The position numbers were made by a program, and so were the translations under genes. Under the pieces are notes generated by a model. The model worked only from the letters and a program-made list of their open reading frames with translations, was not told the DNA's origin and made no database searches. From Candidatus Latescibacterota bacterium (GTDB lineage Bacteria > Latescibacterota > UBA2968 > UBA8231), in NCBI GenBank assembly GCA_965204725.1, contig OZ242005.1, positions 640,001-704,000 of the forward strand: a DNA stretch of 64,000 bases. Direction: 5' to 3'. Positions 21,143-40,817 of this stretch are shown here, in pieces; the stretch's first letter is position 1, and each line of letters opens with the position of its first letter.

Positions 21143-21145
21143 TAG

Positions 21146-21955: not shown

Positions 21956-21957
21956 AG

Positions 21958-22665: not shown

Positions 22666-22709
22666 GTTATAATGTCCGAATTAGAGTTGAAGCGCAACCT
22701 GTAAGTAGA

Positions 22710-23612
22710 TCAGCCAGCCCCACCCCAAGTGTACACCTGCGCTGGCTTAGGCTCCCAGACCTCGGCGGCGTCAATCCCCGGTAAGCTCGACAGCGCTTGA
22801 AACTCGCTGGCCATCGCCACGTACGCGTCTGTCTCGGCTAGCACCGCTGGCTTGCAGGCAATCGGGTCGCGCAAGACCGCGAAGCCATCGGCCGTGCCAA
22901 TGGCAAAGGTATAGAAGCCGTCTAGCTCGTCGAGCGCGGTTCGTAGGGCCGCTTGCAAGGTATCCCCCTGCTGCATCCGCCACATCAAGTAGCCGGCGGC
23001 CACCTCGGAGTCGTTTTTCGTGCGGATTTCGATCCCGTTGCGCTGTAGGCGCGTGCGCAACCGGCTGTGGTTGCTCAGAGAGCCGTTGTGTACTAAGCAG
23101 AGGTCCATGCCCGTAGAAAAGGGATGAGAGCCGTCGGTGGTCACCGCGCTCTCAGTGGCCATGCGCGTATGACCGATGATGTGCGTACCGCGCATCCGGC
23201 GCACGCCGAAGCGATGGACGATCTCAGCGGGTGCGCCGATCTCTTTGAGGAGCTCAATGCGGCGGCCGATGCTCATTACCGTCAGGTCAGGGTCTGAGCC
23301 AGCGAGCATCTGCCCCAGCGAATCGGCGCGGGCGCGCACGGCGATGACTGCGTAGTTGGCGTTGACGTGCAGGGGGGCCTCGCAGCCAAAGCGCCGGCCG
23401 AGTTGGTCGGCTAGCCCCGGCCAGTCGTAATCGGCGGCCGTGTGCCGCAAGGTGACTTTGATAGAGCCTTCCGGCGGCTCCTCGCCATACAGCGCCAACC
23501 CTGCGCTATCCGGGCCGCGGTCGCTCATACATATCAGCATCTCGGCGAACAGCGCCCCGAGTTGGTCGGCCAAGCGGCGTTTTTTTATGTACAGCCCAAC
23601 AATGCCACACAT
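22710..23612 (-). CDS. mgsA: N-methylglutamate synthase amidotransferase subunit (GlxB-like)
   Basis: MCGIVG Ntn start, RGPDSAG, GHTRMATES, HNGSLSN, RDPIACKP. Confidence 0.9.
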   Translation of the reverse strand: MCGIVGLYIKKRRLADQLGALFAEMLICMSDRGPDSAGLALYGEEPPEGSIKVTLRHTAADYDWPGLADQLGRRFGCEAPLHVNANYAVIAVRARADSLGQMLAGSDPDLTVMSIGRRIELLKEIGAPAEIVHRFGVRRMRGTHIIGHTRMATESAVTTDGSHPFSTGMDLCLVHNGSLSNHSRLRTRLQRNGIEIRTKNDSEVAAGYLMWRMQQGDTLQAALRTALDELDGFYTFAIGTADGFAVLRDPIACKPAVLAETDAYVAMASEFQALSSLPGIDAAEVWEPKPAQVYTWGGAG

Positions 23613-24851: not shown

Positions 24852-24873
24852 GGCATCCTGAGCCGGTTGGGGG

Positions 24874-25953
24874 TCAGCCTCCGATCTGAATCCGTTCCGC
24901 AGTGTGCTCCTCGACCGCGGCGAGATCTACTTCCATGCCCAGTCCCGGCGCGTCGGCAATCTCGATGTACCCATCGCATATCTGTAGTGGATTCTCGATA
25001 AACGGCGCAGAGGACATGCCAGCGCTCACCTCTAAGAAGGGCGTGTTCCGGCTAGTGCCCGCGATATGCAGATGGGCGAAACCGTCGCAGAGCCCCAAAC
25101 CGTCTAGATGGCAGTAGGCCCCAAAGGCTTCGGCGCAGCGAGCGGACTTGAGCACATTCGTTAGGCCGCCGGCCCGGGTTACCTCGGTGCGCACGTGGTC
25201 GGCGGCTTGGGCCGCCATGACTTGGGCCGCTTCTATGGGACGGGACACGCCCGTGCTCGTCGGGGTATCGAGCGCCGCGGCTACCTGCCGACCGCCGGAC
25301 CTATCGCCGTCGGGACGCGGCTGGTCAAAACAGAAAAAGTCTGCGGCGTCGAGCGCCCGGCCAATCCGTATCGCTTGGTCAATGACCCACCGCGCCCGAC
25401 CGTCGAACAACAGGCAGAAATCCGGCCCTACGGCCCGGCGCACGTCGCGTATTAGGTTGACGAACGCGGCTTCGTCCAACTGAGCGTCGAATTTGTACGC
25501 CTTGAAACCTGCACGCTGCGCTTCCCGCGCTTCCTCCACGATCTCTTCCGCCGAGCTTTGCTCCGCGCCCCTCCGGCAAACCGGAATGCGATTGCGAAAG
25601 CCATTGACATACCGATGAACCGGCTGGCCAGCGGCCTTCGCCGCGAGGTCCCACAAGGCGATGTCGATACCGGCGCGCAGGGCGACCGGCACCCTTTCAT
25701 CTACTTCGTTGAACGCCAGCCATATCCGTTCGCGGTCCACGGGATTCGCCCCGAGGAGGATGGAGGCCGCTTCGGCCACATCGGCCTCAGAGAGCGGGGC
25801 CGCAACCCCGGTGCAGCGACCTTCCAACCCCGCATCGGTCAGAACGCGCAACAGACCGGCCGGCTGGTGTACGACGATTCGGGATATAATCATGGGCTTT
25901 TTAGGGATGTATCCGCTGTGAATGATCGGCGTGGAGTATAGATTGTCAGACAT
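24874..25953 (-). CDS. Mandelate racemase/enolase-superfamily protein (divergent)
   Basis: GIDIALWDLAAKAAGQPV, GFKAYK, PGLGMEVD. Confidence 0.78.
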   Translation of the reverse strand: MSDNLYSTPIIHSGYIPKKPMIISRIVVHQPAGLLRVLTDAGLEGRCTGVAAPLSEADVAEAASILLGANPVDRERIWLAFNEVDERVPVALRAGIDIALWDLAAKAAGQPVHRYVNGFRNRIPVCRRGAEQSSAEEIVEEAREAQRAGFKAYKFDAQLDEAAFVNLIRDVRRAVGPDFCLLFDGRARWVIDQAIRIGRALDAADFFCFDQPRPDGDRSGGRQVAAALDTPTSTGVSRPIEAAQVMAAQAADHVRTEVTRAGGLTNVLKSARCAEAFGAYCHLDGLGLCDGFAHLHIAGTSRNTPFLEVSAGMSSAPFIENPLQICDGYIEIADAPGLGMEVDLAAVEEHTAERIQIGG

Positions 25954-25990: not shown

Positions 25991-28081
25991 TCACCGGCCC
26001 GGTGAAAACTCTGCTTCCCAGACAGTGCGATTCTCTTTGGCAATCCACTGGCCGACATAGACGCGGTCGATGGCGTAGTCGGGGAGTTGGACGGTCGCGA
26101 TACACTGGTCGGCGACCTGCATACGCGCGGCAAGATCGAGCCAGTCGAAATGGAAGCCGAGGTTGTCAGAGCCCCACCGCCTGCGGGCGATGGGTAAGAC
26201 GCCCAGGTCAGAAGGGACGACGTGCAAAACGAACTTCGCCTGCACATCCGCAGGGGCGCACGGCTGTTTGAAGTAGGTCAGCTTGCGTCCGTTGCGGTAC
26301 ACGTCCCAATCGGCACGAACCACCCGCTCACCCGCCTGTGCGAGCAGGTGCGCCACATAGCGTTCTTGGGCGCGCTGTTTTTGGGCGCGATGCCGGTCGG
26401 CATCAAACGGTTCGGTCGCCGCCACCCTTACGCGGAATACCACGCCATCGGACGCCTCGGCTACCACCTCCACGCCGGGCAGCAAGCGAATGTCGAGGTC
26501 GTTGTAGTCATAATACACAGTTCGATAGGTGTTTTTGAGCCAGACGAGATATACTTGGTCTCGGCCCGATTTGCGCCACCCGCTCGCCTTCCGCGTCCAC
26601 CACCCGCTTATGTCAAAAGGAAGCTGCCGATGTGTTCGGATGGCGGCGGTCCGGTCTGCAAACCAGAGGAGGAAATGGTTGTTGCTGTACGTTATGCTAT
26701 CGCTAAGGTGGTCCCGGAGGTACTTCAGGGGCGCGGAATATCGCCAATAGGCGACACTGAAAGCGTCGTCGTCCGGGTACCCGGTATCCAATGCTTGGGC
26801 GGTAAGACGGAGATTTCTCTGTGCCGAGAAGCCGGTATGGGCGACGGCCCCCAGCAAGACGAGGGACGCTAGACCCCACTTGGCTGCGGCCACCCAGCCC
26901 GCAACCTCGATGGACAGGAACCGGTCCAACAAGAACACCGCCGCCAACAGCAGCGGCACATACACCGGCAGCAGAACGCGGGCGAGCAGCCCCCCGGGGA
27001 CCACGAGCGGCACGATGACGACGATGAATATGAGGTAAATCGCGGCGAACACCCCGAATGGGAGCACCGGCCCCAACCCGAAAGACAGTGGACGCCGGCC
27101 GATCCTTTCCCCCTCCGTCCTTCTCGCCCAACGACCCGCCACAACGACAACCGCGGCCAGCACCACAACAACCAGCCCGGCCGTCGCCCACAGGAGAGCA
27201 CCGAACCAGTCCGATGTGCTCAGCCCGGTCGCCCTCCACAGGAGATAATCAAACCAGTCCACCGCGTTCGGGGGAATCACCCACTCATAGAGTATATCCG
27301 CCACTCGGTTCAGCATATCGGATAGGGACTGCCCGGACCCGTGTCTCCCCCCGGTCAGGCTCCCTTCGATAACCCAGTTGCGCAAAAGCACCCCCGCGAG
27401 GGGAAGGGATGAGAGACCCCCAAATACGACGGCGTCTTTCAACCGGGTAGAAAGCGGCGGAGCGCGACGCACCAGCAGCATGAGGACCGCCGCACCGATC
27501 AGGACCACGCCCGGATAGCGGATCAGCGCGGCCAGCGCGGTGCAAACCGCCGCCCACAAAAGGGGCGTCCGACCACCGCGATGCAGGAAGGATGCCAACC
27601 AGATCAAGGAGAGGAGCACGAACAGGACGAAGAGGGAGTCGGTCATAAGGCTCGACGCGAGCTCGCTCAAGGGCAGGGAAGCTGCGATGGCTATGGTGGC
27701 GGCCAGCCCCAGCCACTGCGACCTAAGATTCGAGCGCAGCCAGCAGCCGGCGACGAAGATGGTCAGGCCGAAGGCGGTGGCGTTGATCCACCGACCCGCT
27801 TCCAGCGGATCGATGCCAACCCAACAGAAGGCCGCCAGCAACAGGGGGAACAAGGGCGGCCAGAATACTATCGGGTCGCCCGTGAAATCTCGCCAGCCCT
27901 CGCCCGCGAGGAAGTTCATGGCCATAGAAAGGTAAAAGACGGAGTCCAGGACGACCGCGATGCCGTAGGTGGCGGTGCGGACGAGGATGTGCGCGGTGCC
28001 CAGCCCGGCGAGGAAGGCGATAAGCAGCATGAAGCGGTCGCGCCGCAACCGGGCGATCCATGCGATGGCGGAGCACTTCAT
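25991..28081 (-). CDS. GT-C (ArnT/PMT-like) membrane glycosyltransferase, array copy 1
   Basis: TM-rich; xDS loop, WPPLFP, TDSLF, RYPG, RxLLP; soluble Cys-pair C-terminal domain. Confidence 0.7.
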   Translation of the reverse strand: MKCSAIAWIARLRRDRFMLLIAFLAGLGTAHILVRTATYGIAVVLDSVFYLSMAMNFLAGEGWRDFTGDPIVFWPPLFPLLLAAFCWVGIDPLEAGRWINATAFGLTIFVAGCWLRSNLRSQWLGLAATIAIAASLPLSELASSLMTDSLFVLFVLLSLIWLASFLHRGGRTPLLWAAVCTALAALIRYPGVVLIGAAVLMLLVRRAPPLSTRLKDAVVFGGLSSLPLAGVLLRNWVIEGSLTGGRHGSGQSLSDMLNRVADILYEWVIPPNAVDWFDYLLWRATGLSTSDWFGALLWATAGLVVVVLAAVVVVAGRWARRTEGERIGRRPLSFGLGPVLPFGVFAAIYLIFIVVIVPLVVPGGLLARVLLPVYVPLLLAAVFLLDRFLSIEVAGWVAAAKWGLASLVLLGAVAHTGFSAQRNLRLTAQALDTGYPDDDAFSVAYWRYSAPLKYLRDHLSDSITYSNNHFLLWFADRTAAIRTHRQLPFDISGWWTRKASGWRKSGRDQVYLVWLKNTYRTVYYDYNDLDIRLLPGVEVVAEASDGVVFRVRVAATEPFDADRHRAQKQRAQERYVAHLLAQAGERVVRADWDVYRNGRKLTYFKQPCAPADVQAKFVLHVVPSDLGVLPIARRRWGSDNLGFHFDWLDLAARMQVADQCIATVQLPDYAIDRVYVGQWIAKENRTVWEAEFSPGR

Positions 28082-28096
28082 TGTAGAGCATCTCTC

Positions 28097-28164
28097 CTAA
28101 GTACACGACAGTAATCTCAATTGATCTAATATAATATGAACACATGTTACTGTCGTGTACTTAG
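28097..28164. mobile_element. 68-bp MITE with 18-bp perfect TIRs and 9-bp target duplication
   Basis: CTAAGTACACGACAGTAA (28097-28114) and TTACTGTCGTGTACTTAG (28147-28164); GCATCTCTC on both sides; empty site at 38625-38633. Confidence 0.9.
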
Positions 28165-28203
28165 GCATCTCTCCATGCTTGCCAGTCATGTAGGACTGCT
28201 ATA

Positions 28204-30270
28204 TCACCGGCCCGGTGAAAACTCTGCTTCCCAGACGGTACGGTTCTCTTTGGAAATCCACTGGCCGACATAGACGCGGTCGATGGCGTAGTCGGGGAGT
28301 TGGACGGTCGCGACACACTGGTCGGCGACCTGCACACGCGCGGCAAGATCGAGCCAGTCGAAATGGAAGCCGAGGTTGTCAGAGCCCCACCGCCTGCGGG
28401 CGATGGGTAAGACGCCTAGGTCAGAAGGGACGACGTGCAAAACGAACTTCGCCTGCACATCCGCAGGGGCGCACGGCTGTTTGAAGTAGGTCAGCTTGCG
28501 TCCATTGCGGTACACGTCCCAATCGGCGCGCACCACCCGCTCGCCCGCCTGTGCGAGCAGGTGCGCCACATAGCGTTCTTGGGCGCGGTGTTTTTGGGCG
28601 CGATGCCGGTCGGCATCAAACGGTTCGGTCGCCGCCACCCTTAGACGGAATACCACGCCATCGGACAACTCAACCACCTCCTCCACGCCGGGCAGCAAGC
28701 GAATGTCGAGGTCGTTGTAGTCGTAATACACAGTTCGATAGGTGTTTTTGAGCCAGACGAGATATACTTCGTCTCTGCCCGATTTGCGCCACCTGCTCAC
28801 CTTCCGCGTCCAATCGGTCCAATCGCTTATCTTAGAAGGAAGAGACTGATGTGGTCTGATGGCGGCGGTCCGGTCTGCAAACCAGAGGAGGAACAGGTTG
28901 TTGCTGTACGTTATGCTATCGCTAAGGTGGTCCCGGATGTACTTCAGGGTCGCGGCATGTTGCCGATAGGCGACGTTGAAAGTCCCGTCGTCCGGGTCCC
29001 CGAATTCCAATGCTTGGGCGGTAAGACGGAGGTTTTTTTCTGCCGAGAAGCCGATGTGGGCGAGGGCCCCCAGCAAGACGAGGGACGCTAGACCCCATTT
29101 GGCTGCGGTCATCCGACCCGTAGTCTCGATGGACAGGAACCGGTCCAACAAGAACACCACCGCCAACAGTAGCGGCCCGTACACCGGCAGCAGAAAGCGG
29201 GCGAGTATCCCCCAATGGACCACGAAAGGGACCGTGAGCGGCACGATGACGACGATGACGACGAGGTAAATCGCGGCGAACACCCCGAATGGGAGCACCG
29301 GCTCCAATCCGAAGGATGGCGACTTGCCGCGACCCGACAGAACGACGACCACCACCATCGCCACAACAACCAGCCCGGTCGTCGCCCACAGGAGAGAACC
29401 GAACCAGTCCGGTGTGCTCAGCCCGGTCGCCCTCCACAGGAGATAATCAAACCATTCCACCGCGTCTTGGGGGATCACCCACTCCTGGAGTACATCCACC
29501 ACTCGGCTCAGCGAATCGAACAGGGACTGCCCCGACCCGCTTCTCGGCCCGGTCAGGGTCCCAGAGACGACCCAGTTACGAGTCAGAAACCCGGCGAGGG
29601 GAATGGATGGGATGGCCCCAAATACGACAGCGTCTTTCAACCGGGCGACCAGCGGTGGAGCGCGACGCACCAGCAGCATGAGGACGCCGACGCCGATTAG
29701 CACCACGCCCGGATAGCGGGTCAGCACGGCCAGCGCGGTGAATACCGCCGCCCACCACAGGGACGTCCGCTCGCCGCGCTGGAGGAAGGCCGCCAACTGC
29801 ATCAAGGCGAGGAGCGTAAACAGGACGAAGAGCGGCTCGGTCATGACGGCTGACGCGAGCTTGCTCAAGGCAGGGAAGGCCCCCGCGATGATTGCGGTGG
29901 CGGCCAGCACCAGCCAGCGCGACCGGAGATGCAAGCGCAGCCAGCACCCCGCAACGAGGATGGTCAGCCCGAAGGCGGTGGCGTTGACCCACCGCCCCAC
30001 CTCCAGCGGCTCGATGCCGACCCAACCGCCGACCGCCAGCAGCAGGGGAAAGAAAGGCGGCCATTCTACCATCAAGCCGCCCGTGAACTCCCGCCAACCC
30101 TCGTCCGCGAGGAAGTTTAGGGCCGTAGAAAGGAAAGCCGTGGACGCCATGCTGACGGTCGCGCCGTAGGTGGCGGTGCGGACGAGGATGTGCGCGGTGC
30201 CTAGCCCGGCGAGGACGACGATGAGCAGCGTGAAGCGGTTGCGCCCGAACCGGGCGACGGAGCATTTCAT
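28204..30270 (-). CDS. GT-C membrane glycosyltransferase, array copy 2
   Basis: Paralogue; start MKCS at 30270; loop Asp replaced (VSMAS). Confidence 0.7.
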   Translation of the reverse strand: MKCSVARFGRNRFTLLIVVLAGLGTAHILVRTATYGATVSMASTAFLSTALNFLADEGWREFTGGLMVEWPPFFPLLLAVGGWVGIEPLEVGRWVNATAFGLTILVAGCWLRLHLRSRWLVLAATAIIAGAFPALSKLASAVMTEPLFVLFTLLALMQLAAFLQRGERTSLWWAAVFTALAVLTRYPGVVLIGVGVLMLLVRRAPPLVARLKDAVVFGAIPSIPLAGFLTRNWVVSGTLTGPRSGSGQSLFDSLSRVVDVLQEWVIPQDAVEWFDYLLWRATGLSTPDWFGSLLWATTGLVVVAMVVVVVLSGRGKSPSFGLEPVLPFGVFAAIYLVVIVVIVPLTVPFVVHWGILARFLLPVYGPLLLAVVFLLDRFLSIETTGRMTAAKWGLASLVLLGALAHIGFSAEKNLRLTAQALEFGDPDDGTFNVAYRQHAATLKYIRDHLSDSITYSNNLFLLWFADRTAAIRPHQSLPSKISDWTDWTRKVSRWRKSGRDEVYLVWLKNTYRTVYYDYNDLDIRLLPGVEEVVELSDGVVFRLRVAATEPFDADRHRAQKHRAQERYVAHLLAQAGERVVRADWDVYRNGRKLTYFKQPCAPADVQAKFVLHVVPSDLGVLPIARRRWGSDNLGFHFDWLDLAARVQVADQCVATVQLPDYAIDRVYVGQWISKENRTVWEAEFSPGR

Positions 30271-30301
30271 AGTAGAAAGGGTGAATTTATCCATATAAGG
30301 C

Positions 30302-30353
30302 GTCATTCCGGCGAACGGACATCACCCGTGCCTCGACACGGGGCGGGAATCCA
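30302..30353. repeat. REP/dRS3-like palindromic element
   Basis: gtcattccggcgaa...gcgggaatcca with inner hairpin cccgtg-cctcga-cacggg. Confidence 0.5.
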
Positions 30354-30370
30354 GTCTTGAAGGATGTAGA

Positions 30371-32380
30371 TTAGAGCCGATGCGAAAACTTTGCTTCCCA
30401 AAGCGTACGATTCCCCTCGGCAATCCACTGGCCGACCCGGATGCGGCTGATGGCGTAGTCGGGGAGTCGGACGATCGCGATACACTGGTCGGCGACCCGC
30501 CCGCCGCGCCGGTCAAAATAGAAGCCGAGGTTGTCAAAGCCGTACCGCTTGCGGTGAGCTGGCAGGTCGGCCGGATCGGCCGGGACGACGTGCAAAACGA
30601 ACTTCGCCTGCACGTCAGCGGGGGCGCACGGCTCTTTGAAGTAGGTCAGTTTGCGTCCCGTGCGGTACACGTCCCAGCCGGAGCGAACCACCCGCTCGCC
30701 CGCCTGTTCGAGGAGTTGGTCCACGTAGCGTTGTTTCCGGGCGCGATGCCTTTCCGTATCGAACGGTTCGGCCGCTGTTAGGCGGAGTACGAAGCCATCG
30801 GCTAGTTCGGCCACGACTTCCACGCCGGGCAGGACGCGGAGGTCCAAGTCGTCGTAGTTTTGCTCACTCATGTTCTCGATCCAAACGATATACACGTCGG
30901 TGTCATCTTCGGTCCACTGCATCATCTGCCGCGCCAAACGAGGAAGACCGAGCGGGAATTTTTTCCGGTATTTTCCCGGGGCCGCGTCCCGATCCCAAAA
31001 CCAAGCAAGATGGACGGCGTTGCTGTAAATCCTGCCCTCAATGCGGTTCTCCCAGATGTAATTCAGGGTCTCGGAATGTTGCCAATGGGCGGCGTTGTAC
31101 GTCCTGCCTTCGTATCCGGCGACATGAGCTTGGGCGGTACGACGGAGGTTTTCTCGCGCCGAGAGGCCGACGTGGGCGATAGCCCCCAGCAAGACGAGGG
31201 ACGCCACAACGCAGCGGACGGCAACTCGCCATCCCGCCGCCTCAATGGACAGGAACCGGTCCAGCAACAACACCGCTGTCAACAGCAGCGGCACGTACAG
31301 CGGCAGCAGGAATCGGCTGTCGATTCCCCGATAAATCGCGAAGGGCACGACAGCGACCATGAATGCGAGGTACGCGACAGCGAACAGCCCGAAAGGTAAA
31401 GCCGGCCCCACCCCTAAGGACAGCGACGCAGGCCGATCCTTTCCCTTACTCCCGCCCATGCCTAAGCCGAGACCGGACAGAACGACCACCGCTACTACCA
31501 TAACCAACCCGGTCGTCGCCCACAACAGATAACCCAACCCGTCCGGCGCGTCCAGGGGAATCACCCATCCCCGGAATACATCCACCACTTGGCTCAGCGA
31601 ATCAGACAGGGACTGCCCCGACCCGCCTCTCCCCCCGGTCAGGGACCACTCGCCTCTCCCCCCGGTCAGGGTCCCGGAGATAGCCCAGTTGAGCGTCAAC
31701 ACCCCCGCGAGGGGAATGGACGAGACCACACCAAATGCGATGGCGTGCTTCAATCGAGCGGCCAGCGGCGGAGCGCGACGCACCAGCAGCACGAGGACGC
31801 CGACGCCGATTAGCACCACGCCCGGATAGCGGGTCAGCGCGGCCAGAGCTGTGAAAACCGCCGCCCACAAAAGGAGCGTCCTCCCGCCGCGATGGAGAAA
31901 GGCCGCCAACTGCATCAAGGCGAGGAGCGTGAACAGGACGAAGAGCGGCTCGGTCAGGAGGTGGGACGCCCAATGGCTCAAGGGCAGGGAAGCCGCGATG
32001 GCTCCGGTGGCGGCCAGTGCCAACAGCCGCGACCGGAGATTCGAGCGCAGCCAGCAGCCGGCGGCGAGGATGGTCAGCCCGAAGGCGATGGCGTTGATCC
32101 ACCGCCCCGTCGCCAGCGGCTCGATGCCAACCCAACCGCCGGCCGCCAGCAATAGGGGGAACAAGGGCGGCCAAGTCGCCATCGGTTGGCCCGCGAAATC
32201 CCGCCAGCCCTCGCCCGCGAGGCAGTTCAGGGCCGTAGAAAGAAAAATCGTCGAGTCCATGCCGACCGCAGTGCCGTAGGTAGCGGTGCGGACGAGGATG
32301 TGCGCGGTGCCCAGCCCGGCGATGCCGGCGATGAGCAGCGTGAAGCGGTCGCGCCAGAGTCGGGCGGCAGAGCATTTCAT
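30371..32380 (-). CDS. GT-C membrane glycosyltransferase, array copy 3
   Basis: Paralogue; ATG 32380 overlaps the copy 4 stop (ATGA); internal LTGGRG duplication. Confidence 0.7.
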   Translation of the reverse strand: MKCSAARLWRDRFTLLIAGIAGLGTAHILVRTATYGTAVGMDSTIFLSTALNCLAGEGWRDFAGQPMATWPPLFPLLLAAGGWVGIEPLATGRWINAIAFGLTILAAGCWLRSNLRSRLLALAATGAIAASLPLSHWASHLLTEPLFVLFTLLALMQLAAFLHRGGRTLLLWAAVFTALAALTRYPGVVLIGVGVLVLLVRRAPPLAARLKHAIAFGVVSSIPLAGVLTLNWAISGTLTGGRGEWSLTGGRGGSGQSLSDSLSQVVDVFRGWVIPLDAPDGLGYLLWATTGLVMVVAVVVLSGLGLGMGGSKGKDRPASLSLGVGPALPFGLFAVAYLAFMVAVVPFAIYRGIDSRFLLPLYVPLLLTAVLLLDRFLSIEAAGWRVAVRCVVASLVLLGAIAHVGLSARENLRRTAQAHVAGYEGRTYNAAHWQHSETLNYIWENRIEGRIYSNAVHLAWFWDRDAAPGKYRKKFPLGLPRLARQMMQWTEDDTDVYIVWIENMSEQNYDDLDLRVLPGVEVVAELADGFVLRLTAAEPFDTERHRARKQRYVDQLLEQAGERVVRSGWDVYRTGRKLTYFKEPCAPADVQAKFVLHVVPADPADLPAHRKRYGFDNLGFYFDRRGGRVADQCIAIVRLPDYAISRIRVGQWIAEGNRTLWEAKFSHRL

Positions 32381-34353
32381 CGTAGAAGCGAAAACTCTGC
32401 TTCCCAGAGGGTGCGGTTCCCCGCGGCAATCCACTGGCCGACCCGGATGCGACCAATGGCGTAGTCGGGGAGTTGGACGATCACCACACACTGGTCTGCG
32501 ACCCGCCCGCCGCACCCGTCGAAATAGAAGCCGAGGTTGTCAAAGCCGTACCGCTTGCGGTGGGCTGGCAAGTCCGTCGGATCGGCCGGGACGACGTGTA
32601 AAACGAACTTCGCTTGCACGTCGGCGGGGGCGCACGGCTCTTTGAAGTAGGTCAGCTTGCGTCCCGTGCGATACACATCCCAGACGGAGCGGACCACCCG
32701 CTCGCCCGCCTGTTCGACGAGTTGGTCCACGTAGCGTTGTTTCCGGGCGCGATGCCTTTCCGCATCAAAGGGTTTGACCTCCGTTAGGCGGAGTACGAAG
32801 CCGTCGGCCAGTTCGGCCACGACTTCCACGCCGGGCAGGACGCGGAGGTCCATGGCGTCGTAGTTTTGCTCACTCACATTCTCGATCCAAACGATATACG
32901 CGCCAGTGCCATCTTCGGTCCACTGCATCATCTGCCGCGCCAAACGAGGAAGCCCGAGCGGGATTTTTTCCCAGTACTTTCCTAGGGCAGCGTCCCGATC
33001 CCAAAACCAAGCAAGGAATGCGTTGTTGCTGTAAACCTTGCCGTCAATGGGGTTCTCCTGGATGTAATTTATGATCGCGGAATGTTGCCAACGGGCGGTG
33101 TTGTAATTCCAGCCCGGGTATCCGGCTATCCATGTTCGGGCGGTAAGAATGAGGTTCCTTTGTGCCGAGAAACCAACGTGGGCGAGAGTGGCGAGCAAGA
33201 CGAGGGACGCCACAACGCAGCGGACAGCCACCCGCCAGCCCGCCGCGATGGACAAGAATCGGTCCAGCAGCAACACCACCGTCAACAGCAGCGGCACGTA
33301 TATCGGCAGCAGGTAGCGGCTGTCGATTATCTGATAAACCGTGAAGGGCACAACGGCGACCAGGAATGCGAGGTAGCTTACAGCGAACACTCCAAAAGGT
33401 AGAGCCAGCTCCAACCCGAAAAACGGCGACGCGACCCGATCCTTTTCCTTATTCCCGCTCATGCCTAAGCCGAGACCAGCCAGAACGACCACCAGCCCGG
33501 CCGCTATCCACAGGATATAACCCAACCAGTCCGGTGCGTGTGGTGAGACCACCCACCCCCGGAATACATCCACCACTTGGCTCAGCGAATCGGACGGGGA
33601 CTGCCCCGCTCCGGTTTTCCTCCCGGTCAGGTTCCCGGCGACCGCCCAGTTGCGCGTCAGCACCCCCGCGAGGAGAATGGATGGGACGGCCCCAAATACG
33701 ACGACGTGCTTCAACCGGACAGCCAGCGGCAGGGTGCGACGCACCAGCAGCACGAGGACGCCTGCGCCGATCAGCGCCACGCCCGGATAGCGGGTCAGCG
33801 TGGCCAGCGAGGTGAAAACCGCCGCCCACAAAAAGGATGTCCGCCCGCCGCGATGCAGGAAGTCCGCCAACCGGATCAAGGCGAGGAGCGTAAACAGGAC
33901 GAAGAGGGAATCGGTCAGGAGGTGGGACGCGGAACGAGCTAGGGGAACGGAGGCTGCGAGCGCCACGCTGGCGGCCAGTGCCAACAGCCGTGACCGGAGA
34001 TGCGAGCGCAGCCAGCCCCCCGCGACAAAGATGGTCAGCCCGAAGGCCGCGGCGTTAATCCACCGACCTGCCTGTAGCGGCTCGATGCCAACCCAACCGC
34101 CGGCCGCCAGCAGCAGGGGGAACAAGGGCGGCCACTGCACCATCGGGCGGTCCGCGAAATCCCGCCAGCCTTCTCCGGCGAGGAAGTTCATGGCCGTAGA
34201 AAGGAAACGCGCGGAGTCCGAGTTGACCGCGGTGCCGTAGGTGGCGGTGCGGACGAGGATGTGCGCGGTGCCCAGCCCGGCGAGGAGGGCGATGAGCAGC
34301 ATGAAGCGGTCGCGCCGGAACCGGGCGATCCATGTGATGGCGGAGCACCTCAT
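32377..34353 (-). CDS. GT-C membrane glycosyltransferase, array copy 4
   Basis: Paralogue; start MRCS at 34353. Confidence 0.7.
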   Translation of the reverse strand: MRCSAITWIARFRRDRFMLLIALLAGLGTAHILVRTATYGTAVNSDSARFLSTAMNFLAGEGWRDFADRPMVQWPPLFPLLLAAGGWVGIEPLQAGRWINAAAFGLTIFVAGGWLRSHLRSRLLALAASVALAASVPLARSASHLLTDSLFVLFTLLALIRLADFLHRGGRTSFLWAAVFTSLATLTRYPGVALIGAGVLVLLVRRTLPLAVRLKHVVVFGAVPSILLAGVLTRNWAVAGNLTGRKTGAGQSPSDSLSQVVDVFRGWVVSPHAPDWLGYILWIAAGLVVVLAGLGLGMSGNKEKDRVASPFFGLELALPFGVFAVSYLAFLVAVVPFTVYQIIDSRYLLPIYVPLLLTVVLLLDRFLSIAAGWRVAVRCVVASLVLLATLAHVGFSAQRNLILTARTWIAGYPGWNYNTARWQHSAIINYIQENPIDGKVYSNNAFLAWFWDRDAALGKYWEKIPLGLPRLARQMMQWTEDGTGAYIVWIENVSEQNYDAMDLRVLPGVEVVAELADGFVLRLTEVKPFDAERHRARKQRYVDQLVEQAGERVVRSVWDVYRTGRKLTYFKEPCAPADVQAKFVLHVVPADPTDLPAHRKRYGFDNLGFYFDGCGGRVADQCVVIVQLPDYAIGRIRVGQWIAAGNRTLWEAEFSLLR

Positions 34354-34396
34354 CGTAGAAAGGGCCAATGTACCCATCTCTTTAGTAAAAACAATA

Positions 34397-36409
34397 TCAC
34401 CGGCCTCCCGAAAACTCTGCTTCCCAAACCGTGCGGTTCCCCGCGGCAATCCACTGGCCGACCCGGACGCGGCCAATGGCGTAGGCGGGGAGATCAACGG
34501 TCGTTGTACACTGATCGCCGACCCGCACACCGCGCCGGTCGAAATAGAAGCCGAGGTTGTCAAAGCCGAACCGCTTGCGGGAGAAAGAAAGGTCGGCTGG
34601 ATCGACCGGAGTGACGTGCAAAATGAACTTTGCCTGCACGTCGGCAGGGGCGCACGGCTTTTTGAAGTAGGTCAGCTTGCGTCTATTGCGATACACGTCC
34701 CAGCCGGCGCGAACCACCCGCTCGCCCGCCTGTGCGAGGAGTTGGTCCACGTAGCGTTCCTGATAGCGTTCTTTCTGGGCGCGAATCCTCGCCTCGTCGA
34801 ACGGTTCGACCGCGGCCTCGGCCGTTACGCTAAATACCACGCCATCGGGCGACTCGGCCACCGGCTCCACGCCGGGCAGGAAGCGGATGTCAAGGTCGTT
34901 ATAATCATAAAACCCAGACCGATAGTCGTCTTTGATCCAGACGATATACACTTCGTCTTCGCCCCGTCTGACCCACCCTCTCGCATACCGCGTCCAATCG
35001 CGTATCTCATTCGGAAGAGCCCGATGTTTTCTAATAGCAACGGTCCGATCGGCAAACCAGACGAGGAACTGATTGTTGCTATAAGTCCAGCCATCGCTGA
35101 GGTTGGTCTTGACGTAATTCAGGGTCGCGGAATGTTGCCAATCGGCGGTGTTATAAGCCCCGGCGTCCGGGTACCCGGATTCCAATACTTGGGCGGTAAG
35201 CCTGAGATTCCTCTGCGCCGAGAAGCCGACGTGGGCGAGGGCACCTATCAGGATGAGAGAAGTCAGAACCCACCGGGCGGCAGCCTCAATGGACAGGAAA
35301 CGGTCCAGCAGGAACACCGCCGCCAACAGCAACGGCACGTATATCGGCAGCAGGTAGCGGCTGTCGATTATCTGACCAACCGTAAAGGGCACGATGGCGA
35401 CTATGAATACGAGGTAAGCCACGACGAACACCCCGAATGGGAGAGCCGGCCCCAACCCGAAGGACAGCACCGCCGGCCGATCCGTTTCCTTATCCCCGCC
35501 CCCTTCGTCCTGCCCGCCCATGCCGAAGCCGCGATCTGCCAGAACGACCAGCCCGACCACCATCCACAGGAGATAACCCAACCAGTCCAGCGCGTCCGGG
35601 GGAATCACCCACGCCCAGAATACATCCGCCACTTGGCTCAGCGAATCGGACAGGGACTGCCCCGACGCGCCTCTCCACCCGGCCAAGCGCTTGGAGATAG
35701 CCCAGTTGCGCAGCATCAGCACCGCGAGGGGGATGGAGGGGACCGCACCAAATACGACGACGTGCTTCAACCGGACCGCGAGCGGCAAGGCGCGACGCAC
35801 CAGCAGCACGAGGACGCCGACGCCGATCAGGACCACGCCCGGATAGCGGGTCAGCACGGCCAGCGCGGTGCAAACCGCACTGAGCAGCAGGGGCGTCCTC
35901 TCGCCGCGCTGGAGGAAGGTCGCCAACTGCATCAAGGCGAGGAGCGTCAACAGGACGAAAAGGGAGTCGGTCAAGAAATTTGACGCGAGATCACTCAAGG
36001 GAAGGGAGGCCAAGATGACCACGCTGGCGGTCAGTGCCAGCCACTGCGACCGGAGATGTGAGCGCAGCCAGCACCCGGCGGCGAGGATGGTCAGCCCAAA
36101 GGCCGTAGCGTTGATCCACCGACCCGCGACCAGCGGCTCGATGCCAACCCAACCGCAGGCCGCCAGCAGCAGGGGGAATAAGGGCGGCCAAGTCGCCAGC
36201 GGCCTACCCGTGAAATCCCGCCAGCCCTCTCCCGCGAGTAAGTTCATGGCCGTAGAAAGGAAAATCGTCGAGTCCGTGCCGACCGCGGCGCCGTAGGTGG
36301 CGGTGCGGACGAGGATGTGCGTGGCACCCAGCCCGGCGAGGAGGGCGATAAGCAGCGTGAAGCGGTCGCGCCGGAACCGGGCGATCCATGCGAATACAGA
36401 GCACTTCAT
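34397..36409 (-). CDS. GT-C membrane glycosyltransferase, array copy 5
   Basis: Paralogue, 670 aa. Confidence 0.7.
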   Translation of the reverse strand: MKCSVFAWIARFRRDRFTLLIALLAGLGATHILVRTATYGAAVGTDSTIFLSTAMNLLAGEGWRDFTGRPLATWPPLFPLLLAACGWVGIEPLVAGRWINATAFGLTILAAGCWLRSHLRSQWLALTASVVILASLPLSDLASNFLTDSLFVLLTLLALMQLATFLQRGERTPLLLSAVCTALAVLTRYPGVVLIGVGVLVLLVRRALPLAVRLKHVVVFGAVPSIPLAVLMLRNWAISKRLAGWRGASGQSLSDSLSQVADVFWAWVIPPDALDWLGYLLWMVVGLVVLADRGFGMGGQDEGGGDKETDRPAVLSFGLGPALPFGVFVVAYLVFIVAIVPFTVGQIIDSRYLLPIYVPLLLAAVFLLDRFLSIEAAARWVLTSLILIGALAHVGFSAQRNLRLTAQVLESGYPDAGAYNTADWQHSATLNYVKTNLSDGWTYSNNQFLVWFADRTVAIRKHRALPNEIRDWTRYARGWVRRGEDEVYIVWIKDDYRSGFYDYNDLDIRFLPGVEPVAESPDGVVFSVTAEAAVEPFDEARIRAQKERYQERYVDQLLAQAGERVVRAGWDVYRNRRKLTYFKKPCAPADVQAKFILHVTPVDPADLSFSRKRFGFDNLGFYFDRRGVRVGDQCTTTVDLPAYAIGRVRVGQWIAAGNRTVWEAEFSGGR

Positions 36410-36434
36410 AGTAGAAATTTAGTAAAAACAATAT

Positions 36435-36611
36435 GGCCGTCCTACATCCTTCATAAGGGATGTTCTGCATGGCGTTTTGGGTATGAGATACTTCGCTGCG
36501 CTCAGTATGACAAGGTGTCTGGGGCACGAAGCCCTCGTCTGTGTGTCATGCTGAGCGTAGCGCAGCGCAGTCGAAGCATCTCTACATGCTTGCCAGTCAT
36601 GTAGGACGGCT
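36435..36611. mobile_element. About 177-bp MITE-like insertion (13-bp TIRs, ATAT/TA duplication) with a nested REP-like inverted pair
   Basis: GGCCGTCCTACAT...ATGTAGGACGGCT flanked by ATAT; empty site tttagtaaaaacaATATcacc at 34381-34401; nested gagatacttcgctgcgctcagtatgaca / tgtcatgctgagcg...gaagcatctc (36485-36582). Confidence 0.75.
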
Positions 36612-36614
36612 ATA

Positions 36615-38618
36615 TCACCGGCCTCCCGAAAACTCTGCTTCCCAAACCGTGCGGTTCCCCGCGGCAATCCACTGGCCGACCCGGATGCGGCCAATGGCGT
36701 AGGCGGGGAGATCAACGGTCGTTATACACTGGTCGCCGACCCGCATACCGCGCCGGTCGAAATAGAAGCCGAGGTTGTCATAGCCGAACCGCTTGCGGGA
36801 GAGAGAAAGGTCGGCTGGATCGACCGGAGTGACGTGCAAAATGAACTTCGCCTGTACGTCGGCAGGGGCGCACGGCTTTTTGAAGTAGGTCAGCTTGCGT
36901 CCGCTGCGGTACACGTCCCAACCGGCGCGAACCACCCGCTCGCCCGCCTGTTCGAGGAGTTGGTCCACGTAGCGTTCTTGGTAGCGTTCTTTCTGGGCGC
37001 GAATCCTCGCCTCATCGAACGGTTCGACCGCGGCCTCGGCCGTTACGCGAAATACCACGCCATCGGGCGCATCGGCCACCGGCTCCACGCCGGGCAGGAA
37101 GCGAATGTCAAGGTCGTTATAATCATAAAAGCCAGACCGATAGTTATCTTTGATCCAGACGATATACACTTCGTCTTCGCCCCGTTTGACCCACCGGCCC
37201 GCATACCGCGTCCAATCGCGTATCCTATCAGGAAGAGCCCGATGTTTTTTGATGGCGCCGGTCCGATCGGCAAACCAGACGAGGAACTGATTGTTGCTAT
37301 AAGTCCAGCTATCGCTGAGGTTGGTCCTGACGTAATTCAGGGTCGCGGAATGTTGCCAATCGGCAGTGTTGTACGCCCCGTCCAACCCGGCTCCCCATGC
37401 TCTAGTGGTAATACGGAGGTTTTCTCCTGCCGAGAAGCCGACGTGGGCGACAGCCCCCAGCAAGACGACAGACGACAGACCATAGCGAACAGCAGCCATC
37501 CAGCCCGCCGCCTCAATGCACAAGAACCGGTCCAACAGCAACACCGCCGCCAACAGCAACGGCACGTATATCGGCAGCAGGTAGCGGCTGTCGATTATCT
37601 GAGGAACCGTGGAGGGCACGACCGCAACTATGAATACGAGATAGGCTACGGCGAACACCCCGAATGGGAGAGCCAGCCCCAACTCAAACAACGGCGACGC
37701 CGGCCGAGCCGTTCCCTTATTTCCGCCCATGCCGAAGCCTCGATCAGCCAGAACGACCAGCCCGGCTGCCATCCACAGGAGATAACCCAACCCGTCCAGC
37801 GTGTGCGGGGGAACCACCCACGCCCGGAATACATCCGCCACTTGGCTCAGCGAATCGGACAGGGACTGCCCTGACCCGCCTCTCCACCCGGCCAAGCGCT
37901 TGGAGATAGCCCAGTTGCGCAGCAGCAGCGCCGCGAGGGGGATGGATGGGACCGCACCAAATACGATGGCGTGCTTCAACCGGACCGCGAGCGGCGGGGC
38001 GCGACGCAGCAGCAGCATGAGGACGCCGACGCCGATCAGGACCACGCCCGGATAGCGGGTCAGCACGGCCAAGGCGGTGCAAACCGCACTCAGCAGCAGG
38101 GGCGTCCGCCCGCCGCGGCGGAGGAAGGCCGCCAACCAGATCAAGGCGAGGAGCGTACATAGGACGAAAAGGGGGTCGGTCAAGAAGTTTGACGCGAGAT
38201 CGCTCAAGGGAAGGGAGGTCAAGATGGCCAAGATGGCGGCCAGCACCAGCCACCGCGACCGGAGATGCGAGCGCAGCCAGCACCCGGCGGCGAGGATGGT
38301 CAGGCCGAAGGCGGTGGCGTTGATCCACCGACCCGCGACCAGCGGCTCGATGCCAACCCAACCTAAGGTCACCAGCAATAGGGGGAATAAGGGCGGCCAA
38401 GTCGCCATCGGGCGGCCCGTGAAATCTCGCCAGCCCTCTCCCGCGAGGACGTTTAGGGCCGTAGAAAGGAAAATCGTGGAATCCGTGACGACCCCCGCGC
38501 CGTAGGTAGCGGTGCGGACGAGGATGTGCGCGGTGCCCAGCCCGGCGAGGAAGGCGATAAGCAGCATGAAGCGGTCGCGCCGCAACCGGGCGATCCATGC
38601 GATGGCGGCGCACTTCAT
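36615..38618 (-). CDS. GT-C membrane glycosyltransferase, array copy 6
   Basis: Paralogue; start MKCA at 38618. Confidence 0.7.
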   Translation of the reverse strand: MKCAAIAWIARLRRDRFMLLIAFLAGLGTAHILVRTATYGAGVVTDSTIFLSTALNVLAGEGWRDFTGRPMATWPPLFPLLLVTLGWVGIEPLVAGRWINATAFGLTILAAGCWLRSHLRSRWLVLAAILAILTSLPLSDLASNFLTDPLFVLCTLLALIWLAAFLRRGGRTPLLLSAVCTALAVLTRYPGVVLIGVGVLMLLLRRAPPLAVRLKHAIVFGAVPSIPLAALLLRNWAISKRLAGWRGGSGQSLSDSLSQVADVFRAWVVPPHTLDGLGYLLWMAAGLVVLADRGFGMGGNKGTARPASPLFELGLALPFGVFAVAYLVFIVAVVPSTVPQIIDSRYLLPIYVPLLLAAVLLLDRFLCIEAAGWMAAVRYGLSSVVLLGAVAHVGFSAGENLRITTRAWGAGLDGAYNTADWQHSATLNYVRTNLSDSWTYSNNQFLVWFADRTGAIKKHRALPDRIRDWTRYAGRWVKRGEDEVYIVWIKDNYRSGFYDYNDLDIRFLPGVEPVADAPDGVVFRVTAEAAVEPFDEARIRAQKERYQERYVDQLLEQAGERVVRAGWDVYRSGRKLTYFKKPCAPADVQAKFILHVTPVDPADLSLSRKRFGYDNLGFYFDRRGMRVGDQCITTVDLPAYAIGRIRVGQWIAAGNRTVWEAEFSGGR

Positions 38619-38663
38619 TGTAGAGCATCTCTCCATGCTTGCCAGTCATGTAGGACTGCTATA

Positions 38664-40733
38664 TCACCGGCCCGGTGAAAACTCTGCTTCCCAGACGGTG
38701 CGGTTCTCTTTGGCAATCCACTGGCCGACATAGACGCGGTCGATGGCGTAGTCGGGGAGTTGGACGGTCGCGACACACTGGTCGGCGACCTGCACACGCG
38801 CGGCAAGATCGAGCCAGTCGAAATGGAAGCCGAGGTTGTCAGAGCCCCACCGCCGGCGGGCGATGGGTAAGACGCCCAGGTCAGAAGGGACGACGTGCAA
38901 AACGAACTTCGCCTGCACATCCGTAGCGGCGCACGGCTGTTTGAAGTAGGTCAGCTTGCGTCCATTGCGGTACACGTCCCAATCGGCGCGCACCACCCGC
39001 TCACCCGCCTGTGCGAGCAGGTGCGCCACATAGCGTTCTTGGGCGCGCTGTTTTTGGGCGCGATGCCGGTCGGCATCAAACGGCTCAGTCGCCGCCACCC
39101 TTACGCGGAATACCACGCCATCGGACGCCTCGGCTACCACCTCCACGCCGGGCAGCAAGCGAATGTCGAGGTCGTTGTAGTCATAATACACAGTTCGATA
39201 GGTGTTTTTGAGCCAGACGATATATACTTGGTCTCGGCCCGATTTGCGCCACCCGCTCGCCTTCCGCGTCCACCACCCGCTTATGTCAAAAGGAAGCTGC
39301 CGATGTGTTCGGATGGCGGCGGTCCGGTCTGCAAACCAGAGGAGGAAATGGTTGTTGCTGTACGTTATGCTATCGCTAAGGTGGTCCCGGAGGTACTTCA
39401 GGGTCGCGGAATGTCGCCAATAGGCGACACTGAAAGCGTCGTCGTCCGGGTATCCGGGTTCCAATGCTTGGGCGGTAAGCCGGAGATTTCTCTGCACCGA
39501 GAAGCCGATGTGGGCGACGGCCCCCAGCAAGACGAGGGACGCTAGACCCCACTTGGCTGCGGCCACCCAGCCCGCAACCTCGATGGACAGGAACCGGTCC
39601 AACAAGAACACCGCCGCCAACAGCAGCGGCACATGCACCGGCAGCAGGTAGCGGGCGGACATCTCCATGGGGTAAACGAGCAGCACGATGGCGACGATGA
39701 ATACGAGGTAGATCGCGGCGAACACCGCGAATGGGAGAACCGGCCCCAACCCGAAGGATGGCGACTTGCCGCCCCTGCCTACGCCACGACCCGACAGAAC
39801 GACAACCACCACCATCGCCACAACAACCAACCCGGTCGTCGCCCACAGGAGAGAACCGAACCCGTCCGATGTGCTCAGCCCGGTCACCCTCCACAGGAGA
39901 TAATCAAACCAGTCCACTGCGTCTTGGGGCATCACCCACTCCCGGAATACATCCACCACTCGGCTCAGCGAATCGAACAGGGGGATGGATGGGATGGCCC
40001 CAAATACGACCTGATACCGCGATTGCCAGCCCACTTCAATGCGCTCGACAGCGAGGGAGATGGATGGGATGGCCCCAAATACGACAGCGTCTTTCAACCG
40101 GGCGACCAGCGGTGGAGCGCGACGCACCAGCAGCATGAGGACGCCGGCACCGATCAGCACCACGCCCGGATAGCGGGTCAGCACGGCCAGCGCGGTGCAA
40201 ACCGCCGCCCACCACAGGGATGTCCGCTCACCGCGCTGGAGGAAGGCCGCCAATTGCATCAAGGCGAGGAGCGTAAACAGGACGAAGAGCGGCTCGTTCA
40301 TGACGGCTGACGCGAGTTCGCTCAAGGGAAGAGAAGTTAGAATGACCACGCTGGCGGCCAGTGTCAGCCAGCGCGCCCGGAGATGCAAGCGCAGCCAGCA
40401 CCCCACAACGAGGATGGTCAGCCCGAAGGCGGTGGCGTTGACCCACCGCCCCACCTCCAGCGGCTCGATGCCGACCCAACCGCCGACCGCCAGCAGCAGG
40501 GGAAAGAAGGGCGGCCATTCTGCCGTCAAACCGCCCGTGAATTCCCGCCAGCCCTCGCCCGCGAGGAAGTTTAGGGCCGTAGAAAGGAAAACGACGGAGT
40601 CCGGGTGGACCGAGGGGCCGTAAGTGGCGGTGCGGACGAGGATGTGCGCGGTGCCCAGCCCGGCGAGGAAGACGATGAGCAGCGTGAAGGGGGCGGGTCG
40701 GAACGGCCTTTTTTTATCCGTGGAGATCGACAT
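38664..40733 (-). CDS. GT-C membrane glycosyltransferase, array copy 7 (first transcribed)
   Basis: Paralogue with a distinct N-terminus; internal VVFGAIPSI duplication replaces the RNW loop. Confidence 0.7.
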   Translation of the reverse strand: MSISTDKKRPFRPAPFTLLIVFLAGLGTAHILVRTATYGPSVHPDSVVFLSTALNFLAGEGWREFTGGLTAEWPPFFPLLLAVGGWVGIEPLEVGRWVNATAFGLTILVVGCWLRLHLRARWLTLAASVVILTSLPLSELASAVMNEPLFVLFTLLALMQLAAFLQRGERTSLWWAAVCTALAVLTRYPGVVLIGAGVLMLLVRRAPPLVARLKDAVVFGAIPSISLAVERIEVGWQSRYQVVFGAIPSIPLFDSLSRVVDVFREWVMPQDAVDWFDYLLWRVTGLSTSDGFGSLLWATTGLVVVAMVVVVVLSGRGVGRGGKSPSFGLGPVLPFAVFAAIYLVFIVAIVLLVYPMEMSARYLLPVHVPLLLAAVFLLDRFLSIEVAGWVAAAKWGLASLVLLGAVAHIGFSVQRNLRLTAQALEPGYPDDDAFSVAYWRHSATLKYLRDHLSDSITYSNNHFLLWFADRTAAIRTHRQLPFDISGWWTRKASGWRKSGRDQVYIVWLKNTYRTVYYDYNDLDIRLLPGVEVVAEASDGVVFRVRVAATEPFDADRHRAQKQRAQERYVAHLLAQAGERVVRADWDVYRNGRKLTYFKQPCAATDVQAKFVLHVVPSDLGVLPIARRRWGSDNLGFHFDWLDLAARVQVADQCVATVQLPDYAIDRVYVGQWIAKENRTVWEAEFSPGR

Positions 40734-40817
40734 ACCCCCCCAATAGCCGCTTAGCGTTGCGCTTTTTTAGGTACAGCCCAACCTCACTACACGACACCCG
40801 TGCGGCCAGCCTTCCAA

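Follow-up and report, generated by a model that had tools for sequence, protein, structure and literature searches.

The 64,000-nucleotide (nt) stretch analysed here, called the window throughout, comes from a Candidatus Latescibacterota bacterium (assembly GCA_965204725.1, contig OZ242005.1, positions 640,001 to 704,000). On its minus strand, at 25991-40733, it carries a tandem array of seven co-oriented and intact open reading frames (ORFs) of 670-728 amino acids (aa) each, paralogues of one another, whose products we assign to the GT-C fold of membrane glycosyltransferases. An earlier interpretation made from the letters of the DNA only (hereafter the sequence-only reading) had described seven intact, co-oriented paralogues across 14.7 kb, and the ORFs were found at exactly that span. 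When the proteins are called from a conserved MKCS-type start they are 658-696 aa in length; starts of the MKCS, MRCS or MKCA type occur in six of the seven copies, and c7 has an N-terminus of its own (MSISTDKK...). The copies, numbered by coordinate, are as follows.

25991-28081, minus strand: c1, GT-C paralogue of 696 aa, the last gene of the array
28204-30270, minus strand: c2, 688 aa from its MKCS start; the ORF extends to 30306
30371-32380, minus strand: c3, 669 aa; the ORF extends to 32515
32377-34353, minus strand: c4, 658 aa; the ORF extends to 34563
34397-36409, minus strand: c5, 670 aa, the modelled copy and the reference for residue numbering
36615-38618, minus strand: c6, 667 aa; the ORF extends to 38636
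38664-40733, minus strand: c7, 689 aa, the first gene of the array, a c2-like/c1-like mosaic

The genes recur every 1961-2219 nt, start to start, and this seven-copy spacing is far beyond chance. The stop codon of c4 and the ATG of c3 overlap as ATGA (32377-32380), which suggests translational coupling, and the remaining spacers measure 43-205 nt. Pairwise identity among the copies is 59-85% in protein and 73-90% in DNA, with c5 and c6 85% identical, and three subfamilies can be distinguished: {c1, c2, c7}, {c3, c4} and {c5, c6}. Given these identities, and with 332 of 727 alignment columns invariant, the sequence-only reading overstated the scaffold in calling it almost invariant. Among the shared motifs that it had named, HILVRTATYG, WPP, RYPG and RxLLP occur in all seven copies, but GEGWR is confined to six, c2 having DEGWR; the variable strings it had quoted after TATYG and before RxLLP all match letter for letter. 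We give almost no credence to an assembly artefact that strings together strain variants of a single gene, since DNA divergence between copies is 10-27%, no two of them match exactly over more than 182 nt, and the spacers are unlike in both length and content. Moreover, separate counterparts of single copies co-occur on contigs of other assemblies, and arrays of 2-6 copies are also present on an independent contig of 5.6 Mb.

An AlphaFold2 model of c5, built from 77 relatives, reached a mean predicted local distance difference test score (pLDDT) of 72.7 and contains about 11 membrane helices. Its comparison with the PDB using Foldseek gave 33 matches at E<=0.001, and among the matches listed ranks 1-43 are all GT-C enzymes. 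The top match is ArnT (5f15; E 1.7e-7; template-modelling scores 0.48/0.58), followed by STT3/PglB/AglB, ALG12/9/3, AftA/B/D, Emb, Pmt (Pmt4 and Pmt1-2) and DPY19. Judged by this model, the seven proteins have the GT-C fold (GT-C_A class), their polytopic membrane domain matching that of solved GT-C enzymes. The GT-C call of the sequence-only reading, which had proposed such a structural comparison among its checks, was thus correct.

Sequence profiles place the proteins less precisely. Weak Pfam matches to PMT_2 (PF13231) and PMT (PF02366) lie near the gathering cut-off in six of the seven copies and exceed it in three, namely PMT_2 in c1 (27.0 bits, cut-off 26.1) and PMT in c5 and c7 (23.4 and 22.9, cut-off 22.7); c3 matches neither family. 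These matches span residues ~71-228, the helices that follow loop 1, and cover neither loop 1 nor the C-terminal half. The NCBIfam family NF047440 (LA_3751/LA_3752 putative glycosyltransferase), the locus tags of which suggest neighbouring paralogues in Leptospira, is matched weakly (14-48 bits, residues ~70-390) by six copies, the best score being 47.8 bits (c5) against a cut-off of 200, with c7 unmatched. None of the seven copies matched a PHROGs family, and a viral fold library returned one match at E<=0.001, which is unnamed. The array proteins do not belong clearly to any named family tested, and searches of the full-text literature (subscription journals not covered) found no account of this GT-C family or of such arrays.

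Three parts of the protein are central to what follows, and are given here in the numbering of c5.

36260-36289, minus strand: loop-1 variable residues, c5 residues 41-50 (AAVGTDSTIF), around the putatively catalytic Asp46
35357-35380, minus strand: short variable loop, c5 residues 344-351 (VGQIIDSR), before the near-invariant Arg351
34400-35176, minus strand: C-terminal domain, c5 residues 412-670, with an alpha/beta part and an immunoglobulin (Ig)-like beta-sandwich

Conservation was counted in 96 divergent relatives of 30-60% identity, of which 86 retain Asp46, 85 Arg188 and 92 Arg351; Gly40, Gly60, Gly62 and Pro76 are each conserved in 84-87. Within the first extracytoplasmic loop, Asp46 alone among the acidic residues is highly conserved; the c5 model places it eight residues past helix 16-37 and at the start of helix 45-58, and it is present in six of the seven array copies, c2 having Ala where the others keep it. 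The first periplasmic loop of ArnT likewise carries a conserved acidic residue. Asp46 is putatively catalytic and would be the equivalent of the catalytic Asp of the solved GT-C enzymes. Positions 44, 45, 48, 49 and 344-350, by comparison, are variable family-wide in the same relatives. Both variable segments and the C-terminal domain are predicted to lie outside the cytoplasm, a topology with which loop charge agrees: the short loops placed in the cytoplasm are rich in Lys and Arg, and extracytoplasmic loops EL2 and EL5 have neither.

The C-terminal domain, modelled separately from 56 relatives, reached a pLDDT of 89.6, and two cysteines of its Ig-like sandwich, which is of the disulfide type, C586 and C634, are near-invariant. 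It is predicted to be periplasmic. Nothing significant was found by Pfam in this domain of 56 members, Foldseek gave no PDB match at E<=0.001 (ArnT entries included) beyond generic Ig/FN3-like hints, and the ESM Atlas held no match >=0.9. The final ~110 aa recur as 2-10 tandem modules in other family members. We also observed, in a Caldilineaceae metagenome-assembled genome (MAG; OY282381.1, L017:6778-22932), seven tandem genes of another membrane-protein family with ~7 transmembrane (TM) helices and no Pfam match, each of which ends in 2-3 copies of the ~110-aa module; one member of the GT-C family lies among them.

These observations bear on the possibility that the array encodes PMT-like protein O-glycosyltransferases, each of which would recognise different protein acceptors, periplasmic or at the surface, via its C-terminal domain. 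PMT_2 and PMT are the sole Pfam families matched, the fold matches include Pmt4 and Pmt1-2, the C-terminal module resembles Ig/FN3 folds (by weak matches only), and the Caldilineaceae locus fuses that module to another membrane-protein family. The Pfam scores, however, sit at the cut-off and surpass it in only three copies, ArnT, oligosaccharyltransferases and Aft enzymes are better fold matches than Pmt, and Pfam finds no MIR domain. To our knowledge, moreover, bacteria with a characterised Pmt carry one copy. We consider a PMT-like role unlikely, though with an appreciable share of the probability.

The array belongs to a large and widespread family. At 50% identity its members form 7070 clusters at E<=0.001 and 1052 at E<=1e-30. 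The 5.38-Mb contig from which the window is taken holds at least seven further, longer paralogues, or at least 14 copies in all. Among species-representative genomes, 212 stretches matched the search pattern and 78 of them encode a relative, giving 55 distinct loci. Sixteen of these loci come from a single Candidatus Latescibacterota MAG (CBDETK010000013.1), where 31 full-length copies occur in arrays of 2-6 and as single genes; the search for similar arrays in related genomes that the sequence-only reading had recommended was thus positive. The other loci belong to Chloroflexota, Binatota, Acidobacteriota, Spirochaetota, Pseudomonadota, Gemmatimonadota and another Latescibacterota genome, with arrays of 2-4 copies in Bryobacterales, Spirochaetia and Dehalococcoidia, and tandem arrays of the family are present in at least four phyla.

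A tree of the membrane domain was built with rows from 49 of the 55 loci (L006 being omitted as a duplicate of L002), in which the placement of L017, L021 and L044, cut at the C-terminal-module match, is to be disregarded. Phyla are mixed in this tree, the labels changing 15 times where 6 would be the minimum. Copies from Dehalococcoidia and Latescibacteria are sisters with 97% support in the Shimodaira-Hasegawa-like approximate likelihood ratio test (SH-aLRT), and the sequences of the window group with those of the related MAG in a single clade (99%). Given paralogy, the mixing of phyla is not proof of transfer. The genes around the arrays are unrelated from locus to locus.

With the spread of the family in hand, a second specific function can be weighed, namely that the array proteins are ArnT-like enzymes modifying lipid A or the core of lipopolysaccharide (LPS). 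ArnT 5f15 is, as reported above, the best structural match. Nevertheless, ArnT (GT83) proper is not indicated by sequence, hhalign giving a probability of 0.1 when the family profile is compared with E. coli K-12 ArnT, and no arn-type partners (arnB/C/A/D/E/F-like) are found among the 39 flanking ORFs of the window. The large two-part C-terminal domain has no counterpart among PDB folds at E<=0.001, those of ArnT included, and dozens of paralogues per genome are hard to square with a single lipid A acceptor. We regard an ArnT-like function as very improbable.

The history of the locus can be followed through its flanks, which serve as anchors of synteny, and through its spacers.

40890-44111, minus strand: TonB-dependent receptor (Plug/CarboxypepD_reg), flank and synteny anchor outside the system proper, 91% aa identity to L001:4633-7794
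23664-25953, minus strand: two enolase-superfamily genes (MR_MLE), flank and synteny anchor, 87% and 94% aa identity to their L001 counterparts
38619-38663, minus strand: 45-nt spacer that is duplicated along with the gene; the same core is found again after c6 and c2
28082-28203, minus strand: c2-to-c1 spacer, in which the 45-nt core is split by a ~77-nt palindromic insert

Locus L001 of the related MAG is syntenic with the window, consisting of a TonB receptor, two family copies and two enolase-superfamily genes, so that the same locus has two copies there and seven here. The first of these copies (copy a) has a c7-type N-terminus and the second is of the MKxS type. In a tree that omitted the two L001 copies, which were compared separately, the sister copies of the array sit inside arrays of the related MAG. 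Against L001, the flanking genes show a nonsynonymous divergence (dN) of 0.03-0.07 and a synonymous divergence (dS) of 0.22-0.30 (dN/dS 0.09-0.27), and the family copies, set against their positional counterparts, a dN of 0.17-0.19 and a dS of 0.31-0.35 (dN/dS 0.51-0.59). At a similar dS, the proteins of the array copies evolve three to seven times faster than those of the adjoining genes. A run of G7 stands directly before the start of c7 (40734-40741), and L001 has a G7 ~30 nt upstream of copy a.

The copies are also mosaic, as the sequence-only reading had proposed. Copy c7 resembles c2 over codon columns ~60-380 and c1 over ~400-600 (97-100% DNA identity), and c1 is 98% identical in DNA to c6 over its first 40 codons and 97-100% identical to c7 over its 3' half. 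In a permutation test on 826 polymorphic sites, c1 and c7 share a run of 104 consecutive sites (global p<=0.0005), and further conversion tracts were detected between c2 and c7 (p=0.013) and between c1 and c2 (p=0.027). Copy c7 carries, in addition, an in-frame rearrangement in which a 30-nt duplication replaces a segment with the conserved N-W...GSGQS stretch. Across 38 copies, synonymous diversity in codons 16-37 (TM1/HILVRT; 36299-36364 in c5) is 0.147 compared with 0.342 gene-wide, which suggests either homogenisation by conversion or a constraint at the nucleotide level. The palindromic insert of the c2-to-c1 spacer is flanked by a 10-nt direct repeat (GGAGAGATGC) and looks like a miniature inverted-repeat insertion; another long hairpin is held in the c6-to-c5 spacer (36410-36614).

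The sequence-only reading had gone further, taking the array for a recombining repertoire with hypervariable loops. The two loop segments that it quoted are indeed the most variable 10-column windows of the alignment (3.2 distinct residues per column), tied with a C-terminal segment and with further C-terminal segments close behind. Each array copy, however, has a counterpart in other assemblies, at 91-97% identity for six copies and 87% for c1, and in the six pairs the loops differ at 0-2 positions per pair, four of 124 in total; the rest of the protein differs at 2.8-8.3%. P0073 is a 95% identical counterpart of c4, P0086 is 95% identical to c2 and has the same loops and the same Ala, and the rearrangement of c7 is common to P0112, also 95% identical; being common to other assemblies, the Ala of c2 and the rearrangement of c7 are therefore old. 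The exception is c1, in which the loops differ from those of P0071 at 11 of 19 positions (compared with 11.9% elsewhere in the protein), and c1-like proteins at 77-87% identity all have different loops.

Substitution counts were taken over the 38 copies, with 660 codons ranked by rate. The ratio of nonsynonymous to synonymous polymorphism (pN/pS) is 0.67 overall, 0.30-0.56 in the conserved helices, 0.87 at residues 38-50, 0.95 at residues 344-350 and 0.96 in a disordered cytoplasmic loop; it exceeds 1 in one 4-codon segment only, and no region is clearly above 1. The loop values are thus below one, an outcome that the sequence-only reading had itself listed as telling against it. The two loops nonetheless contain six of the 40 fastest codons among their 20 codons (P=0.0007; residues 44, 45, 48, 49, 345 and 347), the alpha/beta part of the C-terminal domain 18 among 149 (P=0.001), the disordered cytoplasmic loop seven and the TM helices one among 247. 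Its placing of variable loops near the active site accordingly stands insofar as they are fast and flank the conserved Asp46 and Arg351, but more of the fast sites lie in the C-terminal domain. From these site rates, and from the loops kept in close counterparts, the loops are among the fastest parts of the protein on a time scale of species and not of strains; positive selection is unproven.

In the light of these data, a programmed repertoire, in which recombination would rapidly make new active-site loops in the manner of antigenic variation and so vary the surface glycans against phage or host recognition, seems to us quite improbable. In its favour are the mosaic copies with their significant conversion tracts, the loops among the fastest sites, the different loops of c1-like proteins (including the 11 of 19 differences from P0071), the difference in copy number between species at one locus (seven against two), and the G7 tract directly upstream of the c7 start. 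On the other hand, the loops are unchanged or nearly so in six of seven close counterparts, the mosaic of c7 and the Ala of c2 are old, and pN/pS is below 1 in both loops. All seven copies are full length with their own starts, and neither partial cassettes nor an expression site were found. There are no tandem repeat tracts in the array (a repeat scan gave eight short rows of ~2 copies), promoter-like matches are no commoner than in shuffled sequence, and terminator-like matches fall inside coding repeats. Finally, no invertible elements were found, and Pfam identified no invertase, recombinase or reverse transcriptase among the 39 flanking ORFs of the window. The feature itself is real and was correctly recognised as GT-C, and a hypervariable recombining repertoire is unsupported as stated.

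The same rates raise the opposite possibility, that the copies are redundant or decaying duplicates kept by chance or for dosage and that loop variation reflects relaxed constraint. Such an account fits a whole-gene dN/dS of 0.45-0.68 between array copies, a pN/pS of about 1 in the loops and the disordered cytoplasmic loop, the missing Asp of c2 and the rearrangement of c7. It is difficult to reconcile with seven 2-kb ORFs that are all still open at a dS between copies of 0.16-0.50, with the strong constraint on TM helices and motif residues (the former contributing the single fast codon noted above), and with the conservation of each copy, the odd c2 and c7 included, in other assemblies. We therefore assign decay a low probability.

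We hold with high confidence that the array proteins are GT-C-fold paralogues in a birth-and-death array. The array would be one local expansion within a large family of inner-membrane GT-C_A-type enzymes that is so far uncharacterised. In it a unit of 2.0-2.2 kb (one gene plus the 45-nt spacer) is probably duplicated in tandem, with copy loss and occasional gene conversion also shaping the set and with no device for programmed variation. If the analogy with all characterised GT-C enzymes holds, the donor of each protein would be a polyprenyl-phosphate-linked sugar at the periplasmic face of the membrane, and the sugar would be passed to an acceptor in the envelope, the C-terminal domain of ~260 aa facing the periplasm after ~11 TM helices. 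We take an envelope glycan (LPS O-chain, capsule or exopolysaccharide) as the likeliest acceptor, an assignment to which we give rather less than an even chance. Since the paralogues differ most beside the Asp, before Arg351 and in the predicted periplasmic alpha/beta part, we read them as a possible standing set of enzymes of differing acceptor (or donor) specificities. As a whole, this account of a birth-and-death GT-C family that acts at the periplasmic face with paralogue-specific acceptor (or donor) specificity has, in our estimation, slightly better than an even chance of being right.

Several results weigh against it. One of the five AlphaFold2 models of c5 was good, and the other four had a pLDDT of 46-53. 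A search of the family profile against PDB sequences gave no match at E<=1 and chance RNase H matches at E<=10, to which the hhalign result with ArnT is to be added. The C-terminal domain has no recognisable carbohydrate-binding fold, and nothing tells a glycan acceptor from a protein acceptor. Neither a GT2 polyprenyl-phosphate sugar synthase nor a GtrA/MATE/SMR-type flippase is encoded among the 39 flanking ORFs of the window or among 54 neighbours at 14 related loci; L001 has one GT4-type Glycos_transf_1 gene, not GT2, two genes upstream of its array and beside the TonB-receptor gene. Synthase and flippase partners could be encoded elsewhere in the genome. Relaxed constraint would explain the pN/pS of 0.87-0.96 in the variable parts just as well as adaptive divergence would. 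Lastly, c2 has lost the Asp and c7 a conserved segment, and therefore two of the seven copies may be non-catalytic.

GT-C enzymes determine the finer detail of bacterial envelopes, and with it serotypes, phage receptors and, via lipid A, antibiotic resistance. If the acceptor specificities of the paralogues differ, the family would serve as a natural collection in which to study acceptor choice by GT-C enzymes, and would point to envelope diversity that has gone unappreciated in several little-known phyla; if they do not, a family of this size that lacks annotation and has a new domain still merits a family model. More speculatively, an undescribed GT-C family with a structurally unmatched recognition domain, exchanged between phyla of uncultured bacteria and amplified in tandem arrays to dozens of copies per genome, might equip each cell with an evolvable, combinatorial code for glycosylating its envelope, comparable to phage-borne serotype conversion but chromosomal and massively parallel. 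Such a code might be selected by phage predation or by host or grazer recognition, with the residues of the Asp46 loop and the C-terminal alpha/beta subdomain as its specificity determinants. We judge this broader proposal unlikely, but worth stating.

The remainder of the window contains genes of other kinds. A run of defence-type genes occupies a stretch of lower G+C content (0.51-0.64) at 569-13012 and includes DUF4365, a DUF559/Type I S-subunit fragment, a HepT-like/NTase-substrate-binding protein, DUF1828/1829, a Schlafen AlbA_2 protein with HATPase_c_4 and an 874-aa N6 DNA methylase. Within the same interval, 8199-10169 encodes a DUF6785/DUF6784 membrane protein, and the same family occurs at L008:6353-8383, 1.5 kb upstream of a single GT-C copy, a co-occurrence that may be coincidence. 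At 13022-23612 follow sarcosine-oxidase-like, DAO, glutamine-synthetase-like, glutamate-synthase-domain, GXGXG and amidotransferase genes, a cluster that presumably resembles an N-methylglutamate-type methylamine pathway and that is broken by an N6/N4 DNA methylase (21146-21955) and an ORF of unknown function (21958-22665). On the far side of the array and its TonB receptor, two adjacent short ORFs of 265 and 198 aa (44146-45551) both match NAD-dependent epimerase/dehydratase and may be a split gene, and after them comes a 493-aa protein with a HicB-like N-terminus (45565-47046). Proteins whose C-termini carry FlgD_ig/CHU_C-type domains, a kind of type IX secretion signal, are encoded at 61453-63483 and at L001:14522-16879 and hint that the organism has a type IX secretion system.

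The closest known systems resemble the array in part. ArnT (PDB 5f15/5ezm), the GT-C_A enzyme that transfers 4-amino-4-deoxy-L-arabinose to lipid A, shares the multi-helix membrane domain and is the best fold match, and it differs from the array family in that the latter has a large two-part C-terminal domain, tandem arrays and dozens of copies per genome. The sequence-only reading knew of no characterised system like this one, but partial precedents exist in the embCAB genes of mycobacteria, which lie in tandem, and in serotype-specific three-component GT-C enzymes. Emb proteins, like Aft proteins, are among the fold matches of the c5 model. They are also larger (~1050-1100 aa), with lower fold scores (TMq 0.32-0.39) and no sequence similarity to the array, they number three copies rather than seven, and the array comes with no evidence of arabinan or of genes for the synthesis of decaprenylphosphoryl arabinose (DPA). 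PMC11127046 describes EmbC/EmbA/EmbB and Aft as GT-C paralogues with periplasmic carbohydrate-binding domains that use one lipid-linked donor and act on one polymer. The same paper describes Gtr-type three-component enzymes (e.g. the GT136 enzyme ORF12 of Citrobacter youngae) in which a GT-C domain is followed, after TM11, by a C-terminal periplasmic binding module, and the paralogues or alleles of which differ in the glycan site that they decorate (PMC11127046). Compared with these, the array has no adjacent synthase or flippase here or at the 14 related loci, no PHROG match to phage-borne members and a C-terminal domain that is no recognised carbohydrate-binding module, and its copies are chromosomal, tandem and numerous. 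By analogy, we think that the array may work like the serotype-specific three-component GT-C enzymes and like the Emb/Aft set.

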